Positions 2,871 through 11,026 of a stretch of 11,318 bases of DNA are shown here, piece by piece. Each line of letters opens with the position of its first letter. Within the stretch, counting starts at the first letter, position 1. The notes below the pieces were generated by a model that did no database searches, was not told the origin of the DNA, and saw only the letters and a list, made by a program, of their open reading frames with translations. The position numbers and the translations under genes are program-made. This DNA is from a virus (lineage: Duplodnaviria > Heunggongvirae > Uroviricota > Caudoviricetes): positions 1 through 11,318 of IMG/VR virus record IMGVR_UViG_2778261301_000003; one strand, given 5' to 3'.

Positions 2871-3080
<210 letters not shown>

Positions 3081-3168: not shown

Positions 3169-3885
<717 letters not shown>

Positions 3886-3892
3886 CACGTAA

Positions 3893-4330
3893 ATGATTAA
3901 AGAACGTATTTCTTATATCATTCCGATTGCGATGGATGAAGGCAACCCCGTAACTCCAGTTCTTATCTATGAAATGGATAAAGACTCCCATGAAGTGGAT
4001 CTGTCATTTGGCGCTTTTTTTATCGGCCTTAAGGCTACAAAAAAATATTCCATAGGCATTGAGGTTTTCAATGCTCAAGAAATACCGATACCAATTGACA
4101 CAAAACTGTACTCCAACCATAAGTTTTTTACGGTAGCAGAAGCCAACGATGGAGAAACCATCGTATCAACTTCTATGAGAATTAACTTCCCAAGGGTGAA
4201 AATTATCAAGCCTGGGATATTCGAAGTTAGAGCATCACTGGTTAATCCTGAGAAAGGCGAAGTAATTGATGTAAAAAGTTCGTTTTTTGACGTGAAGATA
4301 ACAGGATCAGTTCGCGATGAGTTTAGATAA
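3893..4330 (+). CDS. Hypothetical soluble protein (145 aa) in the rexA-equivalent position
   Basis: ATG 7 nt after the cI stop with no obvious SD, suggesting coupling to cI translation. No TM segment or signal peptide; hydrophobic/polar alternation suggests a beta-rich fold. Not RexA-like by size (145 vs 279 aa); no recognisable catalytic motif. Confidence 0.6.
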   Translation: MIKERISYIIPIAMDEGNPVTPVLIYEMDKDSHEVDLSFGAFFIGLKATKKYSIGIEVFNAQEIPIPIDTKLYSNHKFFTVAEANDGETIVSTSMRINFPRVKIIKPGIFEVRASLVNPEKGEVIDVKSSFFDVKITGSVRDEFR

Positions 4331-4688
4331 CAAGGTTGCTCAGCTTCGTCCAAATCAAAACATATCTCGCCCAATTGGACACTATTCCACTGATGATGCA
4401 TACTCTCGGCATGGTGGAGGAAACGGCGGAGGTAACATGCTTGAGGCTAGAGTTGCAAAGCTAGAGTCTGATGTTGAATACATCAAGCGCGATCTCGCTG
4501 AGGTAAAGTCAGATATAAAATCTGTTGATTCTCGTCTGTCAGGTATTGAGACAAGCATTAGCTCAGCAAAAACCACCATTAAGGCATCTGCGGTCGTTGT
4601 CAGTTTCGTGTTCGCATTTTGCGCCTACATTTTTGGAAGTTATGTATCCAAAATCCTTGATGCCTTAAACGGACTCGTTCTTAAGTAA
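4317..4688 (+). CDS. Hypothetical tail-anchored membrane protein (123 aa): Gly-rich N-terminus, coiled coil, single C-terminal TM helix
   Basis: ATG at 4317 overlaps the upstream stop (4328-4330). An alternative start at ATG 4437 with GGAGG 4 nt upstream would give 83 aa. Heptad-like segment LEARVAKLESDVEYIKRDLAEVKSDIKSVDSRL, then hydrophobic AVVVSFVFAFCAYIFGSYV. Architecture resembles XhlA-like or holin-like small membrane proteins (from memory, unverified). Confidence 0.6.
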   Translation: MSLDNKVAQLRPNQNISRPIGHYSTDDAYSRHGGGNGGGNMLEARVAKLESDVEYIKRDLAEVKSDIKSVDSRLSGIETSISSAKTTIKASAVVVSFVFAFCAYIFGSYVSKILDALNGLVLK

Positions 4689-4694
4689 CACACA

Positions 4695-4721
4695 ACCCGG
4701 CCTCAGTGCCGGGTTTTCTTT
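4695..4721 (+). terminator. Intrinsic terminator closing the cI operon (t-imm equivalent)
   Basis: Stem ACCCGGC/GCCGGGT (4695-4701 and 4708-4714) with loop CTCAGT, followed by TTTTCTTT. Confidence 0.7.
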
Positions 4722-4872
4722 GCCTCTCGATCCCCCCCTCCCAACAACACATAACCATTTGTATTTATTGGAAAACTAATAGATACAACTTGCTAAACAG
4801 TGCAATTCTGATCCCTCACCTACCTAACAATTCACCCCTGCAAAAAATAAATCCATATAAAAAACATACAGA

Positions 4873-4935
4873 TAACCATCTGCGGTGATAAATTATCTCT
4901 AGCGGTGTTGACACAAATACCACTAGCGGTGATAC
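4873..4935 (+). promoter_or_regulatory. OL operator cluster (OL3, OL2, OL1) with pL promoter reading rightward
   Basis: AACCATCTGCGGTGATA (4873-4889), TATCTCTAGCGGTGTTG (4893-4909) and TACCACTAGCGGTGATA (4917-4933) are lambda-type 17-mers. pL -35 TTGACA (4907-4912) and -10 GATACT (4930-4935), followed by the conserved ACATCAGCAGGACGC start region. Confidence 0.9.
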
Positions 4936-4981
4936 TAAACACATCAGCAGGACGCTGGAAGCCAAACGGAACAGATTGGCA

Positions 4982-5016: not shown

Positions 5017-5135
5017 AAACAGATACCAAACGAGATGGGTTTGGCGGTGATGTGAATTGCAGATGCAACGACAGCAACCAGAAGATCAGCACCTGGCGCA
5101 TCACCACCAAAGCCATTTCACATGAGGAAAACATC

Positions 5136-5444
5136 ATGACGGTAATCGTGTACGGAAAATCAACATTTGCAGGAAATGCCAAAACTCGCCGTCATGAGCG
5201 GCGCAGAAAGCTGGCTATCGAGCGTGATTCCATCTGCAACATCATCGATTCGATCTTCGGCACAGACAGTGAGGAAGATGTTCAGGAAGAACCGAGAAAG
5301 CGTTTAAGTCTTTCTGAAAAAGCAATATCACTCGGCATCATCAGTAAATCAAATACAGATGCGAATGGCGGAAGCGTTTGTTTGCCTGAAGTTGCACTGT
5401 ATGCTGCTGGTTACAGGTCAATGAAATCAATTACGGCGAGATAG
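5136..5444 (+). CDS. N: Antitermination protein N, P22 type (102 aa)
   Basis: N-terminal arginine-rich motif GNAKTRRHERRRKLAIERD matches the P22 N boxB-binding peptide (from memory). Start at ATG 5136 with AGGAA SD; the track's 130-aa ORF from 5052 runs into the nut leader and is rejected. Confidence 0.85.
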   Translation: MTVIVYGKSTFAGNAKTRRHERRRKLAIERDSICNIIDSIFGTDSEEDVQEEPRKRLSLSEKAISLGIISKSNTDANGGSVCLPEVALYAAGYRSMKSITAR

Positions 5445-5446
5445 AA

Positions 5447-5713
5447 ATGACTAGCAAACAAGTATCATATAAATGCTATTGCCCTTTATGTGGAAGAAAA
5501 TTCAGCGCCAAGGCAGCATGGAAGCATATCAATGATTATCATCCAAAAGCATCAGAACGTGAGTTGATGATGATAAGAGATGTAAAACGAGAAAAAATTT
5601 CTTTCGCAACAAAGCCACTAAACGCCAACAAAAACGCAATATTGTATCAAATGCATCGTTCAAGTGGTCCAGATTATTCTGGAGGGCTTCCATCTCTTGG
5701 AAAGAAAAAATAA
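5447..5713 (+). CDS. Small zinc-finger protein (88 aa), C2H2-like
   Basis: Motif C-x2-C-x11-H-x4-H (CPLCGRKFSAKAAWKHINDYH) near the N-terminus; starts 2 nt after the N stop; basic C-terminal tail. Confidence 0.55.
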   Translation: MTSKQVSYKCYCPLCGRKFSAKAAWKHINDYHPKASERELMMIRDVKREKISFATKPLNANKNAILYQMHRSSGPDYSGGLPSLGKKK

Positions 5714-5733: not shown

Positions 5734-5846
5734 AATGACATAAATAACCGTATTTACTACCGCAAGCCACGCAGTGAAATGGGTGTGACTTGTGTTGGTC
5801 GCCAGAAAATGAAATTAGGCAGCAAACCACTTATTTGAGGTGAGAT

Positions 5847-6212
5847 ATGGAAGAACAAGCAAACAAGATTCTCGTAGAACTACTGCAAAAAGCCAGTAAT
5901 GGAATAGACGCGGCTGTTTCATTTAGCCAGGCACAGATTCCTGATGTCATCCATCAGCTTTTGATGTGGCACGCCGTATCATCAGCTGGAATTCAGGCTA
6001 TCTGTGTATTGGTGATTATAGCGTGTGTTTATCTGATGATTTTTGCATGGAATAAAGGAGATGATGCAGATATTGTTATTTTATCACTACTTGTCACATC
6101 AGGAATAGCGATTACTTCTATTGTTGTTTTCTTCAATTATTTCGACTGGCTGAAAATTTGGCTTGCTCCAAAACTTTACCTTATCGAATATGCCGCATCA
6201 TTGGTTAAGTAA
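5847..6212 (+). CDS. Small inner-membrane protein (121 aa, two predicted TM helices)
   Basis: GAGGTGAG SD upstream of ATG 5847; hydrophobic segments AVSSAGIQAICVLVIIACVYLMIFAW and IVILSLLVTSGIAITSIVVFFNYF. Confidence 0.6.
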   Translation: MEEQANKILVELLQKASNGIDAAVSFSQAQIPDVIHQLLMWHAVSSAGIQAICVLVIIACVYLMIFAWNKGDDADIVILSLLVTSGIAITSIVVFFNYFDWLKIWLAPKLYLIEYAASLVK

Positions 6213-6265
6213 TTTCATGCCGCATAGTCGGCCTTTATTTTTGGCATAAACAATATGGGGTAAAA

Positions 6266-6592
6266 ATGAAAGTTTTAATGGTTTATGAAAATGTTCCAGA
6301 GTCGACTGAAATCTATATTTTTGATGCCAATGAAGATGAAGTTAACGATTTGAAATTGTCTCACGGCAATTACACAAATGCTAATTGTGATGAAAGTATC
6401 GAAAAAGCACTATCACGTGTTCTTGTCAGAATTAGTGATCCAGAACATTGTGATGATGATTGGCTTTCTTATTGTGGAGCGGTAAAAACTGATGCAGGAA
6501 AATGGAGTAAAAGTAAAGTTGATAACTCAACTCCAATCATTATGAAAGATAGTGATATTGAAATGGTAATAATAACCGGAATGATTATGTAG
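6266..6592 (+). CDS. Hypothetical acidic protein (108 aa)
   Basis: ORF with a G-rich SD; about 21 Asp/Glu versus about 10 Lys/Arg by hand count; AT-rich codon usage typical of moron genes. Confidence 0.5.
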   Translation: MKVLMVYENVPESTEIYIFDANEDEVNDLKLSHGNYTNANCDESIEKALSRVLVRISDPEHCDDDWLSYCGAVKTDAGKWSKSKVDNSTPIIMKDSDIEMVIITGMIM

Positions 6593-6636: not shown

Positions 6637-6737
6637 GGAGCAATGTCGCTCGTAACTAAACAGGAGCCGACTTGTTCTGATTATTGGAAATCTTCTTTGC
6701 CCTCCAATGTGAGGGCAATTTTTTTGACGGAGGATAT

Positions 6738-7049
6738 ATGAAATTACGTGTCTGGCATATCCCGCAAGTACCTATGAAGCCGTTCATTGTAGAAGTGGCA
6801 AGTGTTGAAGAGGGTGTTCGCTTGATGGATGCACTGGCTGATTATGACGCCTTTCAGTATGACAACAACATCAAGCCTGACTACTGCAATGCTAACGGCC
6901 TTGAGATGTGGGATGAGAGCCTTACTGATGAAGATTTATCAGAGATGGAGCTTACGGATCGCTGGGTAGATTGGTACAGCGAATGCCAATGTTACGACGA
7001 CCCACGTAAATATATCGAAAGCCTGAAAGAAGAAACCTCAGCAGCCTGA
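6738..7049 (+). CDS. Hypothetical acidic protein (103 aa)
   Basis: Start chosen at ATG 6738 with GGAGG SD (track ORF starts earlier at 6684 without an SD); about 24 acidic versus about 10 basic residues; Cys pairs (CNANG, ECQC). Confidence 0.55.
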   Translation: MKLRVWHIPQVPMKPFIVEVASVEEGVRLMDALADYDAFQYDNNIKPDYCNANGLEMWDESLTDEDLSEMELTDRWVDWYSECQCYDDPRKYIESLKEETSAA

Positions 7050-7084: not shown

Positions 7085-8053
7085 ATGAGTGAAGTAACAG
7101 ACTTAGTTGTTATTGAAAAAGCAAATGCAATGACTGTATTTCAGTCTGCAGACCAGATTGAAGAAATTCTCCAAAAGGTTGAACGTGAAGTTATGTCCTT
7201 TGTGCCTGATATCACAACGGCAAAGGGCAGAAAGGAGATCGCTTCTCTGGCGTATAAAGTTGCGCAGACGAAAACATATCTCGATGGTCTTGGCAAAGAC
7301 CTTGTTGCTGAACTGAAGGAAATTCCAAAGCTAATTGATGCTAACCGCAAGACAGTGCGTGATCGCCTTGATGAGCTGAAAGCCAAGGCGCGCCAGCCTC
7401 TTACTGATTATGAGGAGGAGCAGGCACGGATTAAAGCCGAAGAAGAAGCTAAGGCAGCAGCCGAAGCTCTCGCAAAGCAAATTGAGTCTGACCATGAAAT
7501 AGCGATTTTGATGGATCGCGAATTTGACCGCCAAAGAGAAGAGGCAAGACTCAAAGCGGAGCAGGAAAAGCGAGAGCATGAAGAACGCTTAAAAAGAGAA
7601 GCTGAAGAGAAAGCCAGAGCTGAAGCCGAAGCAAAGGCAAAAGCCGAAATTGAAGCAGCAGCAAGGCGAGAAGCAGAAGCTAAGGCAGCAGCGGAACGTG
7701 CAGAGCGTGAACGTATTGAAGCCGAGCAACGAGCACAGCGCGAAGCAAAAGAGGCAGCAGAACGAGCTGAAAGAGAAAAGCATGCGGCAATTGAAGCAGA
7801 ACGTCGTAAAGCACAGGAGGAGGCTGAACGAATCCGGCGCGAGGCTGAAGCAAAAGAGCAAGCCAGAATAGCAGAAGAAAAAAGAATCAAGGACGAAGAA
7901 GAGCGTAGAGCAAAGGATAAAGCTCACCGGAAAGAAGTAAATAACAAAATACTGGCTGACCTTATCAAGGTTGGCGCATCAGAAGATGTTGCTAAAAATA
8001 TCATAACAGCCATCGTAAAAGGCGAAGTATTCGCAACAAAAATAACCTACTAA
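7085..8053 (+). CDS. Hypothetical protein (322 aa) with a long Ala/Glu/Lys/Arg-rich helical repeat region
   Basis: Strong SD AAGGAGG; N-terminal domain of about 115 aa, a central low-complexity A/E/K/R-rich segment of roughly 170 aa (TolA domain II-like composition), and a C-terminal domain of about 40 aa. Confidence 0.7.
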   Translation: MSEVTDLVVIEKANAMTVFQSADQIEEILQKVEREVMSFVPDITTAKGRKEIASLAYKVAQTKTYLDGLGKDLVAELKEIPKLIDANRKTVRDRLDELKAKARQPLTDYEEEQARIKAEEEAKAAAEALAKQIESDHEIAILMDREFDRQREEARLKAEQEKREHEERLKREAEEKARAEAEAKAKAEIEAAARREAEAKAAAERAERERIEAEQRAQREAKEAAERAEREKHAAIEAERRKAQEEAERIRREAEAKEQARIAEEKRIKDEEERRAKDKAHRKEVNNKILADLIKVGASEDVAKNIITAIVKGEVFATKITY

Positions 8054-8077: not shown

Positions 8078-8224
8078 ATGATTTACGCAATCGCGGGAGG
8101 CGCTCGCATGGGTGCCTTCCAATTAAATGAATCTTTACTTGAACGAATCACCCGTAAATTACGTGACGGATGGAAACGCCTTATCGACATACTTAATCAG
8201 CCAGGAGTTCCCAAAAATGGATAA
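8078..8224 (+). CDS. cIII: cIII protein (48 aa), anti-FtsH regulator of cII stability
   Basis: Translation MIYAIAGGARMGAFQLNESLLERITRKLRDGWKRLIDILNQPGVPKNG matches the lambda cIII core (ESLLERITRKLRDGWKRLIDILNQPGVPKNG) from memory; AAGGA SD. Below the 60-aa ORF-track cutoff, so found by hand. Confidence 0.85.
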   Translation: MIYAIAGGARMGAFQLNESLLERITRKLRDGWKRLIDILNQPGVPKNG

Positions 8225-8330
8225 AACACTTATGGCTATCCAGACTAAATTCACTATCGCCACTTTTATTGGCGATGAAAAGATGTTTCGTGAGGCCGTC
8301 GAAGCCTACAGGAAATGGAGGTCAAAATGA
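8217..8330 (+). CDS. kil: Kil-like small protein (37 aa)
   Basis: Starts inside the cIII stop region with AGGAG SD; MDKTLMAIQTKFTIATFIGDEKMFREAVEAY resembles lambda Kil as I recall it, and the position right after cIII is correct. Confidence 0.5.
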   Translation: MDKTLMAIQTKFTIATFIGDEKMFREAVEAYRKWRSK

Positions 8331-8523: not shown

Positions 8524-9204
8524 ATGGGAACTGCGACATTAATACTCGGTGAGTCTGGCACCGGAAAATCAACCAGCATGAGAAATATCAATCCAGAGGA
8601 AGCAATACTTATAAAACCAATAGGCAAGCCGCTTCCATTTAAATCAAAAGACTGGCTGGCATGGGATGCCAGAGCAAAAAAAGGAACCGTAGTTACCACT
8701 GACAAATGGGACGTAATAGTTGCCGTAATTAAGCGTGCTCACGAATACGGGAAAAGAATCGTTATTGTTGATGACTTCCAGTATGTGATGAGCAATGAGT
8801 TTATGCGCCGCTCAGAAGAAAAATCGTTTGATAAATTTACTGAGATAGGCCGCCACGCATGGGAGGTGATTAAGGCTGCACAGGATGCACCTGATGACCT
8901 GAGAGTCTATTTTCTTGCGCACACCGAAGAAACCCCTATGGGGCGCGTGAAAATGAAAACTATCGGCAAAATGCTGGACGAGAAAATCACTGTCGAAGGC
9001 ATGTTTACTATAGTTCTTCGCACTCTTACCCGCGATGACCAGTTCTTTTTCACCACGAAAAACAACGGTGCAGACACTGTTAAATCCCCAATGGGAATGT
9101 TTGATTCCAATGAGATTGATAACGATCTCTCTTTCGTCGATGCCACTGTTTGTGATTACTACGGCATCAATAATGTTCATCAAATTAAGGAAAACGCCGC
9201 ATGA
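8524..9204 (+). CDS. Sak4-like RecA-core ATPase (AAA_24-type), phage recombination protein
   Basis: N-terminal Walker A LILGESGTGKST and Walker B-like IVIVDD, about 226 aa; located where lambda has the Red genes and followed by an SSB-like gene. Confidence 0.6.
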   Translation: MGTATLILGESGTGKSTSMRNINPEEAILIKPIGKPLPFKSKDWLAWDARAKKGTVVTTDKWDVIVAVIKRAHEYGKRIVIVDDFQYVMSNEFMRRSEEKSFDKFTEIGRHAWEVIKAAQDAPDDLRVYFLAHTEETPMGRVKMKTIGKMLDEKITVEGMFTIVLRTLTRDDQFFFTTKNNGADTVKSPMGMFDSNEIDNDLSFVDATVCDYYGINNVHQIKENAA

Positions 9205-9788
9205 GCAACGTGATTTTTACTTATAACGAAGAAGCAGCACTGACCGCAGGGCAAGGTGGTTTTATTAACGAAACTGGCGCTCATATCATTACCATTACTG
9301 AAGCAGAACTAAAGCAATCAGAAAAAGGAGCCAAATTTATTGAGTTTTCTGGCGAATCCGACGACGGACGTAAAATCCAATATCTTAGCGTCTGTGTTCA
9401 GAAAAATGACGGAACGGAAAACAAATTTGGCGCAAATGTCGTTCACGCCATGATGGGGTGTGCCGGGATTGGACAATTAACGCAGCATATGGTTTCCGCC
9501 AGTAAATTTGTTGCTCCTGAGTTTCACGGAAAGAAAATCGGGTTAGTGCTACAGAAAGTATTAACCACAAACAAAAAGACTGGTGCAGACAGTTACCAGA
9601 TGGAAATACGCATCCCGTTTATTGCACAAACAGGCCAAACACTTAAAGAAAAGGCGGAAGGCAAGCAACCAGAAACTATCGCCAACATGGTTTCCAGCCT
9701 CAAAGATAAAGACAATCGCTCTAAAAACGTAAGCCAGAATCATGCAGATGATTATGGTTACAGCCAGAACGATTACCCTCCTTTCTGA
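9201..9788 (+). CDS. Putative ssDNA-binding protein partner of Sak4 (195 aa)
   Basis: ATGA overlap with the upstream gene; acidic C-terminal tail ending ...DDYGYSQNDYPPF, reminiscent of the acidic tails with terminal Phe in SSB and T7 gp2.5. The OB fold is not verifiable by eye. Confidence 0.4.
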   Translation: MSNVIFTYNEEAALTAGQGGFINETGAHIITITEAELKQSEKGAKFIEFSGESDDGRKIQYLSVCVQKNDGTENKFGANVVHAMMGCAGIGQLTQHMVSASKFVAPEFHGKKIGLVLQKVLTTNKKTGADSYQMEIRIPFIAQTGQTLKEKAEGKQPETIANMVSSLKDKDNRSKNVSQNHADDYGYSQNDYPPF

Positions 9789-9811: not shown

Positions 9812-10108
9812 ATGCCAGCGCCTCTGTATGGTGCGGATGACCCGCGCCGCTGTTCCGGCAATTCCGTATCGGAGGTGCTGGATAAATTCAGAAAAAACTA
9901 CGACCGGATAATGTCGCTACCGCAGGAAACGAAAGAGGAAAAGGAATTTCGCCATTGTATATGGCTTGCAGAGAAAGAAGAACGCGAGCGAATTTACCAG
10001 ACATCAATCCGACCATTCCGCAAAGCCACATATACCCACTTCCCTGAATATATCGACCCTCGCCTGCGTAATTACCGCTCACGCTATGGCGCTATCAGTA
10101 ATGACTGA
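9812..10108 (+). CDS. Hypothetical protein (98 aa)
   Basis: ATG-initiated ORF in the operon, weak AAGG SD; charged, Arg-rich, no recognisable motif. Confidence 0.45.
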
Positions 10109-10118
10109 GGAATTTACC

Positions 10119-10286
10119 ATGAGAGGACTTGCATACAATCCCGGCATTCTTCCGGCAGAAATGATTATTCGCCAACGAGTAAAGCCAATGCCATCGAGAG
10201 AGGAATTGCTTAAGAGAAATTCTTTTCCATCAGTGAATCAAAACAAATATCTGAATGCGATGTGGCGCAAAGGAGGCGACCAGTGA
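10119..10286 (+). CDS. Hypothetical small protein (55 aa)
   Basis: ATG 10119 with GAGG SD, starting 10 nt after the upstream stop; the longer track ORF from 9966 overlaps the previous gene. Confidence 0.35.
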
Positions 10287-11026
10287 GCAAAATTAACTAT
10301 CAGGCACTGCGTGAAGCGGCAGAGAAAGCCGGTGAAGATAAGTGGCAGGCTAAAAAAATAAATGGTGATTTTTTCGTTATTCGTCACGGTAGTTATACAA
10401 GACAGCATGGCTACACATCGTATCAACCCATTGCGGAGATTGATTGTAAGCCAGTCCGGGATTTTGTTGCCAAGGCTAATCCGGCTACCGTGCTGGCACT
10501 GCTGGATGAGAACGAAAGCATGTGCCGCGACCTCATTGCTCGCAATGGTGAGATTGAAGGGCTTCGAAAACTGGTTGCTGAACTTGAGGAGACAAAATCA
10601 AAACTCAACGAGCAGCGTGAATATTACGAAGGTGTTATCTCGGATGGAAGTAAGCGTATTGCTGAACTGGAGAAAAGCGAAGAGCAACTCATCAATGAGC
10701 GTGACCATGCTGAGTCTGCTTTAGCTGATATGTATTTTGCAGCAACCGGGGATAGGCCGGAGTGGAGTAACTGGTTCGGCTTTTCAGATGCCGTCGATAC
10801 CGTGGTTGACAGAATTGCTGATTTAGAAGCTAAACAGCCATCGCCAGCAGTACTGGAAGGACTGGTTAAAGCAGTGCGCTTCTATGAACAGGTAAAGTGT
10901 GAGAATCCGCCAGCTGAAACCGGAGCATGGAAGGACGCTGTTGACTGGGTGCTTAAAGAGGCTTGTCAGGCTGTAAATATTGGCACCAAAGGAGACGCAG
11001 GAGAGCAAAGCGATGAAAAACCGTAA
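10283..11026 (+). CDS. Ead/Ea22-like early-region protein (about 247 aa)
   Basis: GTG start at 10283 with AGGAGG SD 6 nt upstream, overlapping the previous stop. N-terminus [16 protein letters not shown]... and a central coiled coil resemble lambdoid Ea22-family proteins as I recall them. Confidence 0.5.

Follow-up and report, generated by a model that had tools for sequence, protein, structure and literature searches.

A probable early inner-membrane accessory protein of a lambdoid phage and its widespread family with near-invariant ends and a hypervariable core

The 121-residue open reading frame at positions 5847-6212 (+ strand; ATG start, TAA stop) of the 11,318-nucleotide stretch of viral DNA analysed here (the window) is a gene of the PHROG 3054/Sf6 gene-34 family, in which two near-invariant terminal segments flank a hypervariable pair of transmembrane helices, and its product is probably a small, early, inner-membrane accessory protein of the phage. 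The window comprises the immunity and early-left region of a lambdoid phage with a phi80-like pL operon. The gene, its family, its architecture and its position in the operon are established here, while the membrane topology is drawn from the relatives and the timing of expression from sequence. Small membrane proteins with no assigned function make up one of the largest gaps in the understanding of phage genomes, and this family is present in the model phages phi80, Sf6 and HK633 and in the DH5alpha chromosome. The gene is in databases many times over as a hypothetical protein, and its family has neither a name nor a Pfam model. New here are the conserved-variable-conserved architecture, a topology in which the ends probably face the periplasm, the extent of the family and of its host range, and the fact that it is independent of SieB.

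That the open reading frame is a genuine gene and not a chance reading frame follows from a full-length match to PHROG 3054 (E=9.7e-47; residues 1-121 on profile positions 1-137 of 137), from the 574 relatives retrieved by a word-indexed search and from the 4,710 clusters (50% identity) found at E<=0.001 in an exhaustive profile search, 1,939 of them at E<=1e-10. Direct reading of the sequence places a Shine-Dalgarno element, GAGG, at 5837-5840 (+ strand), with the ATG 6 nt further on. The identical sequence is recorded in 39 E. coli contigs, labelled 'hypothetical protein' in every one, and 43 of 5,426 complete E. coli genomes carry the gene in full length.

The encoded protein opens with a conserved N-terminal domain (aa 1-46; 5847-5984, + strand) that is predicted to be helical, carries a net charge of -3 and bears the motif F..AQIPDVIHQLL.W immediately ahead of helix 1; alignments, the signal peptides of relatives and charge statistics suggest that it lies on the periplasmic side. 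Transmembrane helix 1 (aa 47-68; 5985-6050, + strand), which is hypervariable family-wide, is marked by hydropathy and by an AF2 pLDDT of about 80-89, and the likewise hypervariable transmembrane helix 2 (aa 76-99; 6072-6143, + strand) by hydropathy. The two are joined by the short polar loop NKGDDAD (aa 69-75; 6051-6071, + strand), probably cytoplasmic, the counterparts of which in relatives range from 7 to more than 55 residues. A conserved, amphipathic and aromatic-rich helix, DWLKIWLAPKLYLIEYAASLVK (aa 100-121; 6144-6209, + strand), presumably periplasmic and juxtamembrane, completes the chain. The two strongly hydrophobic helices that a first-pass annotation had read in this protein are borne out by Kyte-Doolittle peaks (19-residue windows) of 2.79 at aa 49-67 and 2.54 at aa 76-94. 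The AF2 monomer shows a long helix at residues 2-70, helix 2 at 74-97 and a kinked C-terminal helix, with moderate confidence (mean pLDDT 72-74, pTM 0.44-0.48). A terminator-like hairpin within the reading frame (5941-5957) was set aside; it overlaps the codons of the invariant PDVIHQLL and is regarded as a coding by-product.

Family alignments of 36 and 110 members delineate two near-invariant blocks, namely the N-terminal 46 residues and, straight after helix 2, a C-terminal segment of 22 residues, WLKIW(L/I)APK(L/V)(Y/W)LIEYAA.LVK; the protein of the window carries both terminal motifs (QIPDV..QLL.W and WL.IW.APK..LIEYA) around its two-helix hairpin. Among the 110 diverse members P32, A107, P108, K109 and L112 are invariant. 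Pairwise comparison of 118 enterobacterial members gives a mean identity of 81% in the N-terminus and 91% in the C-terminus, as against 35% in the middle, where the helix-loop-helix segments fall into 23 types; indeed, 407 pairs of enterobacterial members have N-termini at least 90% identical and middles less than 30% identical. The same pattern is found in the DNA, of which the first 110 nt, the last 70 nt and short flanks are common to about 80 of 86 related loci and the middle to 25. Thus, with ends in common and a divergent middle at both the protein and the DNA level, the gene is, as far as such comparisons can tell, a mosaic, the core of which is swapped via recombination in the conserved ends.

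The Sf6 gene 34 protein, the PHROG 3054 members and the 121-residue open reading frame of the phi80-derived segment of DH5alpha are true homologues of the protein, and relatives vary in the middle cassette and in loop length. Open reading frames of DH5alpha, HK633, N7 and SPN9CC are 98-99% identical to it and share its position just after N, and a 140-residue E. coli protein named 'Gene 34 protein' at source, taken as of the Sf6 gene 34 type, is 52% identical. The copy in the phi80-derived segment of the E. coli DH5alpha chromosome (3342-3707 of the segment retrieved) is identical at 119 of 121 residues (98%), and the gene order there is that of the window (N, a zinc-finger open reading frame, the 121-residue and then a 109-residue open reading frame). 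In HK633 (NC_019719.1), RefSeq miscalls the gene at 4090-4765 of the retrieved locus as a 129-residue other-frame product, gp43, and a 58-residue C-terminal fragment, gp42; an intact 121-residue open reading frame, 99% identical to the window protein, is in fact present.

Phages with a member of PHROG 3054 include lambdoid and P22-like temperate phages, virulent phi92-like myoviruses, N4-like Salmonella phages, many Vibrio phages and phages of Rheinheimera and Pseudomonas, and the family is also found in prophages of Enterobacterales, Pseudomonas and Thalassotalea and of the beta-proteobacterial Achromobacter, Castellaniella, Candidimonas and Uliginosibacterium. The presence of members in virulent phages shows that the function is not specific to lysogeny. 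Outside the family the searches gave no lead: the protein matched no family in Pfam (E<=0.01), NCBIfam or PADLOC-DB (the last being defence profiles, of which 0 families were matched); a Pfam scan of the 110 members at E<=1 gave scattered chance matches to membrane families, each from at most 6 members; a sequence-profile search of the PDB gave a single chance match (E=0.9); a Foldseek structure search returned nothing beyond the family itself; and, among PHROG profiles, PHROG 3054 and one PHROG of no known function were matched and nothing else. No paper on the PHROG 3054/Sf6 gene 34 family was found in the library searched, and no relationship to a known lysis or transport component emerged from the homology searches.

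The gene is borne by the early-left operon, between N (about 5133-5444) and cIII (8078-8224), all on the + strand, where the first-pass annotation had located it. A pL-like sigma-70 promoter (TTGACA-17-GATACT, 10 of 12 consensus matches) is found at 4908-4936 (+ strand), between the terminator of the cI operon and N. The N antiterminator is of the P22 gene 24/phi80 type (Pfam N_peptide, E=1.5e-35; PHROG 271). Terminator scans of the window revealed no terminator between pL and the gene, and no promoter-like site was found on the + strand between 4936 and 6558, so the gene should share the first pL transcript with N, with pL as the probable source of its transcription. Because pL is repressed in the lysogen, a gene on the pL transcript is probably expressed early and lytically, and not in lysogens. 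Operon position downstream of pL thus favours the early expression that had been claimed for the protein, whereas its claimed expression in lysogens goes unsupported, there being no promoter-like site from pL to the gene and, in relatives, terminators 55-70 nt upstream of it.

Those terminators bear on how the gene would be read. Many relatives have a tL1-type terminator 55-70 nt upstream of the gene and a second terminator 5 nt downstream, so that in them the gene would need N-mediated read-through, and this terminator pattern, with no promoter of the gene's own, fits N-dependent read-through better than independent (moron) expression. In the window the downstream site, 5 nt past the stop codon, is occupied by a weakened terminator-like hairpin (ATGCCG-CATAGT-CGGCCT, one mismatch) and a T-run (6217-6243, + strand), and relatives have there the perfect hairpin AGGCCGCATAGTCGGCCT followed by TTATTTTT. 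A strong intrinsic terminator with an 8-bp stem and T7 (6697-6718, + strand) stands immediately 3' of the membrane gene in most relatives; in the window it is separated from it by an acidic open reading frame of 108 residues, orf108 (6266-6592, + strand; PHROG 4658), which is present in only 2-3 of 86 related loci. As for the upstream side, the roughly 100 non-coding nucleotides at 5746-5846 keep their nucleotide sequence in 33-62 related loci, including those with another gene upstream, and contain a tL1-like terminator in many relatives and none in the window.

The same evidence weighs on the idea, which underlies the first-pass description of the gene as sitting at the position equivalent to that of sieB, that the protein takes the place of SieB as an immunity or exclusion factor expressed from the prophage. 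SieB, of about 180-190 residues, is transcribed antisense to pL from its own promoter, is expressed in the lysogen and acts by abortive infection rather than by an entry block. The sieB genes of lambda and P22 are likewise encoded in the N-cIII accessory region, and the window has no sieB; such a replacement is nevertheless highly improbable. The gene runs with pL, and has no promoter of its own, whereas sieB runs against it; terminators stand just upstream of it in relatives; the family is common in virulent phages; and SieB is not homologous to the protein, an hhalign comparison of a family profile with SPN9CC SieB giving a probability of 0.6% and Pfam SieB (PF14163) remaining unmatched. Furthermore, SPN9CC and a dozen P22-like phages related to it have the gene (98% nucleotide identity) right next to an intact sieB on the other strand. 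Since the two genes coexist in SPN9CC-type phages, the gene, on this comparison of genomes, is not SieB and not a SieB substitute either; what the two have in common is a variable region and not a function slot, and the SieB-equivalent framing has to be abandoned.

About 71 of 86 related lambdoid loci have N immediately upstream of the gene and in the same orientation, and N is the only constant neighbour there; outside the lambdoids none recurs. The idea of a constant pairing with the coiled-coil protein downstream, or with the recombination module of Sak4 type, was considered and dropped; the Sf6 gp33-like 322-residue protein is downstream in 17 of 87 loci. In virulent phages (phi92-like, N4-like, Vibrio and Pseudomonas) the gene is found among early, replication or nucleotide-metabolism genes. 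No domain fusion occurs among the 150 best matches listed from the exhaustive search, all of which are stand-alone proteins of 103-184 residues. The scattered distribution of the gene, and the fact that it stands alone, with no conserved neighbour or fusion, suggest that it is accessory in nature. Individual contexts depart from these patterns. In a Proteus prophage the gene directly follows a cassette of holin, endolysin and i-spanin; in Candidimonas it adjoins an integrase; and in a contig labelled Pseudomonas lundensis (3400-4520 of the retrieved locus) a member with an enterobacterial-type N-terminus lies with a 62-residue open reading frame in a terminator-flanked cassette on the opposite strand, the flanking genes being portal and terminase as judged by size and order alone. 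The last looks like a moron-type insertion, or the contig is possibly mislabelled.

What the conserved ends may do depends on the side of the membrane they face. For the family, the relatives with signal peptides and the charge statistics make N-out, loop-in, C-out the most likely topology, with both conserved blocks at the periplasmic surface of the inner membrane. A subfamily of 49 sequences (153-227 aa), to which gp18 of Pseudomonas phage Bjorn belongs, carries an N-terminal extension resembling a Sec signal peptide, with a K/R-containing start, a hydrophobic core and an AxA|A(E/D) site, which directly precedes the conserved N-domain; with a signal peptide ahead of it, the N-domain of the Bjorn-type proteins must be exported. 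A start-codon artefact was considered for the Bjorn gp18 extension and dismissed, as AAGGA stands before the ATG and the extension is kept in 49 relatives. Across 373 members, the 28 residues that precede helix 1 have a K+R of 0.88 and a D+E of 2.76, the first 8 residues following it a K+R of 2.40 and a D+E of 0.75, and in 70% of the members the K+R of the loop equals or exceeds that of both flanks combined.

The target protein by itself is ambiguous. It has no signal peptide, its loop contains 1 K and 3 D and its C-tail 3 K, so that the positive-inside rule is not obeyed for an N-out/C-out arrangement and its topology has to be taken from its homologues. An opposite arrangement, in which the conserved termini would be cytoplasmic and the short acidic loop periplasmic, the protein then acting inside the cell (e.g. 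as a membrane tether or trap for a cytoplasmic factor of phage or host), draws on these charges, on the 46-residue N-tail of the target protein, which would otherwise need export without a signal peptide, and on the short-loop members, which have a K+R of 5.5 in the termini versus 1.2 in the loop. It is nonetheless judged unlikely, given the 49 relatives with a cleavable-looking signal peptide before the same N-domain, the charge bias around helix 1, which favours N-out over the whole family, and the K/R-rich, coiled-coil-like and, thus, cytoplasmic character of the long loops. The question of orientation is separate from the ranking of functions and cuts across the functional options.

With regard to function, the order of preference is exclusion of secondary phages, counter-defence or host takeover, a role in lysis timing and, last, SieB-like lysogen immunity. 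Envelope-level exclusion of secondary invaders during lytic growth is the leading guess, and a tentative one, made by analogy. The protein would be produced from pL together with N, as an accessory inner-membrane protein that is made soon after infection or induction but not by a repressed prophage; the helical hairpin, i.e. the poorly conserved transmembrane helices and their variable loop, would serve as an anchor; and the conserved 46-residue N-terminal helical segment and the 22-residue C-terminal amphipathic helix, lying together on the periplasmic face, would interfere with an envelope-crossing step, such as the entry of the DNA of a second phage, in a cell that is already infected. Judged by the anatomy of the family, the two conserved blocks on the periplasmic side of the membrane would do the work, with the core serving either as anchor or as specificity cassette; that the protein would act in the phage-producing cell follows from the early timing of its expression.

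Such an exclusion would be after the manner of T4 Imm, P22 SieA or HK97 gp15, through an unrelated protein. Characterized small early phage inner-membrane proteins are mostly exclusion factors (T4 Imm, Sp, P22 SieA and HK97 gp15), which speaks for this assignment. T4 Imm, a small phage protein of the inner membrane that is expressed early and has two hydrophobic helices, resembles the target protein, known here from its sequence, in this outline; however, no sequence relationship is found, Pfam Imm_superinfect being unmatched by the target and by the 110 members at E<=1, and, unlike in T4 Imm, the conserved and presumably functional parts of the family are the extramembrane termini. HK97 gp15 and P22 SieA, phage proteins of the inner membrane that counter incoming phage DNA at the envelope, offer a possible functional analogy, although they are prophage-expressed morons or independent genes, differ in size and number of helices and have no detected homology to the family. 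The few members at moron-like sites (the terminator-flanked cassette of the P. lundensis contig and the Candidimonas gene beside an integrase) and the virulent phages that carry the gene, as a stand-alone accessory gene, in early or replication clusters are also in keeping with exclusion. On the other side stand the Pfam, NCBIfam, PADLOC, PDB sequence and Foldseek searches, which indicate no function; the target protein itself, which breaks the positive-inside rule, has no signal peptide and has a moderate AF2 model; and the Proteus prophage, where the location after the lysis cassette would suit a lysis-related role. Moreover, the periplasm-facing parts are near-invariant across phages of E. 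coli, Vibrio and Pseudomonas, and exposed parts so constant fit a conserved host component or self-assembly better than they fit the recognition of diverse phages.

It is this constancy that favours the second option, counter-defence or host takeover, in which the periplasm-facing cap would bind, neutralize or re-tune a conserved host envelope protein for the benefit of phage development, candidate targets being a membrane defence sensor or effector, FtsH-HflKC, Tol-Pal or the cell-wall synthesis machinery. The extreme conservation of the terminal motifs over distant hosts suggests that they meet a conserved host target or self-assemble; the neighbours in the pL operon are host-directed (cIII versus FtsH, kil versus FtsZ, abc2 versus RecBCD, and gene 17); and the gene is also found in virulent phages. 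Yet the gene has neither a known partner nor a conserved neighbour, many lambdoids can dispense with it (lambda and P22 are absent from the matches listed, most records lying outside that list) and there is no similarity to known anti-defence proteins, the PADLOC search covering defence families only. The option is therefore considered doubtful, and placed after exclusion.

A part in lysis timing or envelope protection would liken the protein to an antiholin or to Spackle, i.e. to a factor that senses or blocks periplasmic events such as lysis from without or premature triggering of the holin. T4 RI antiholin and Spackle are early proteins with active parts in the periplasm of the infected cell, as is proposed for the target, and the probable topology of the family would, like that of T4 RI, place domains in the periplasm with an anchor in the inner membrane. 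The Proteus prophage gene right after holin, endolysin and i-spanin, and the presence of the gene in N4-like and phi92-like phages, go in the same direction. T4 RI and Spackle are, however, secreted or SAR-anchored single-domain proteins that show no homology to the target, and most genomes show no association of the gene with a holin. It sits in an early operon, far from the lysis cassette, in lambdoids and in almost every other context seen. As to membership among the holins themselves, the gene of the window lies in the early pL operon and not in a lysis cassette, and no holin or antiholin family in Pfam or PHROGs is homologous to it; the Proteus prophage, a distant one, is the only case seen of lysis genes next to it. 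Taken together, a lysis-related function is improbable.

Returning to exclusion, a bolder version, to be regarded as a long shot, would make of the family a new and widespread class of phage envelope exclusion or immunity proteins, in which the N-terminal helices and the C-terminal amphipathic helix would make up an invariant periplasm-facing cap directed at a conserved structure of the host inner membrane, while the hypervariable hairpin and loop, a swappable cassette of which enterobacterial members alone have 23 types and which recombination within the conserved ends exchanges, would determine specificity or allow escape. Its users would be virulent and temperate phages of gamma- and beta-proteobacteria alike. 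The signature itself, near-invariant and probably periplasm-facing ends flanking a hypervariable membrane core, is unusual. Should the protein block phage entry or disarm a component of the envelope, it would be a common new player in phage-phage competition that could affect phage cocktails; should it do neither, it would still be a cheap and well-defined target for a first functional study.

The remaining genes of the window complete the picture of the region. In the pL operon, N is followed, 3 nt past its stop codon, by a small open reading frame of 88 residues (5447-5713, + strand; PHROG 20899) with a C2H2/C2HC-like zinc-finger signature that is sub-threshold in Pfam; this reading frame is rare among relatives, occurring in 2 of 87 loci. 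Downstream of the membrane gene and orf108 come, on the + strand, a homologue of P22 gene 17 (about 6738-7049), a 322-residue protein of the Sf6 gene 33 type with a long E/K/A/R-rich coiled coil (7085-8053), cIII and kil (8217-8330). Homologues of the 322-residue protein are labelled 'TolA' or 'coiled-coil domain-containing protein' in RefSeq, and it differs from HK633 gp41 by a 22-residue repeat length. The recombination module that follows consists of an AAA_24 (Sak4-type) ATPase (8524-9204, + strand) and a 195-residue protein (9201-9788, + strand) in place of Erf or Red-beta, with abc2 (9812-10108, + strand) next to it and then an Ead/Ea22 protein (10262-11026, + strand).

On the other side of the immunity region, the - strand encodes a DnaC/IstB-like loader (694-1605), the replication O protein (1590-2435), cII (2468-2764) and cro (2871-3071). 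Directly 3' of cI (3172-3885, + strand), in the place that rexA and rexB hold in lambda, two overlapping open reading frames are found, of which the first (3893-4330, + strand; 145 aa, PHROG 5893) encodes a soluble protein and the second (4317-4688, + strand; 123 aa, PHROG 6136) a protein that combines a coiled coil with a hydrophobic helix at its C-terminus and gives weak XhlA/hemolysin-like and CorA-like matches. The pair, which is closed by the strong terminator that ends the cI operon (4694-4715, + strand), looks like a candidate two-gene defence module expressed from the prophage.
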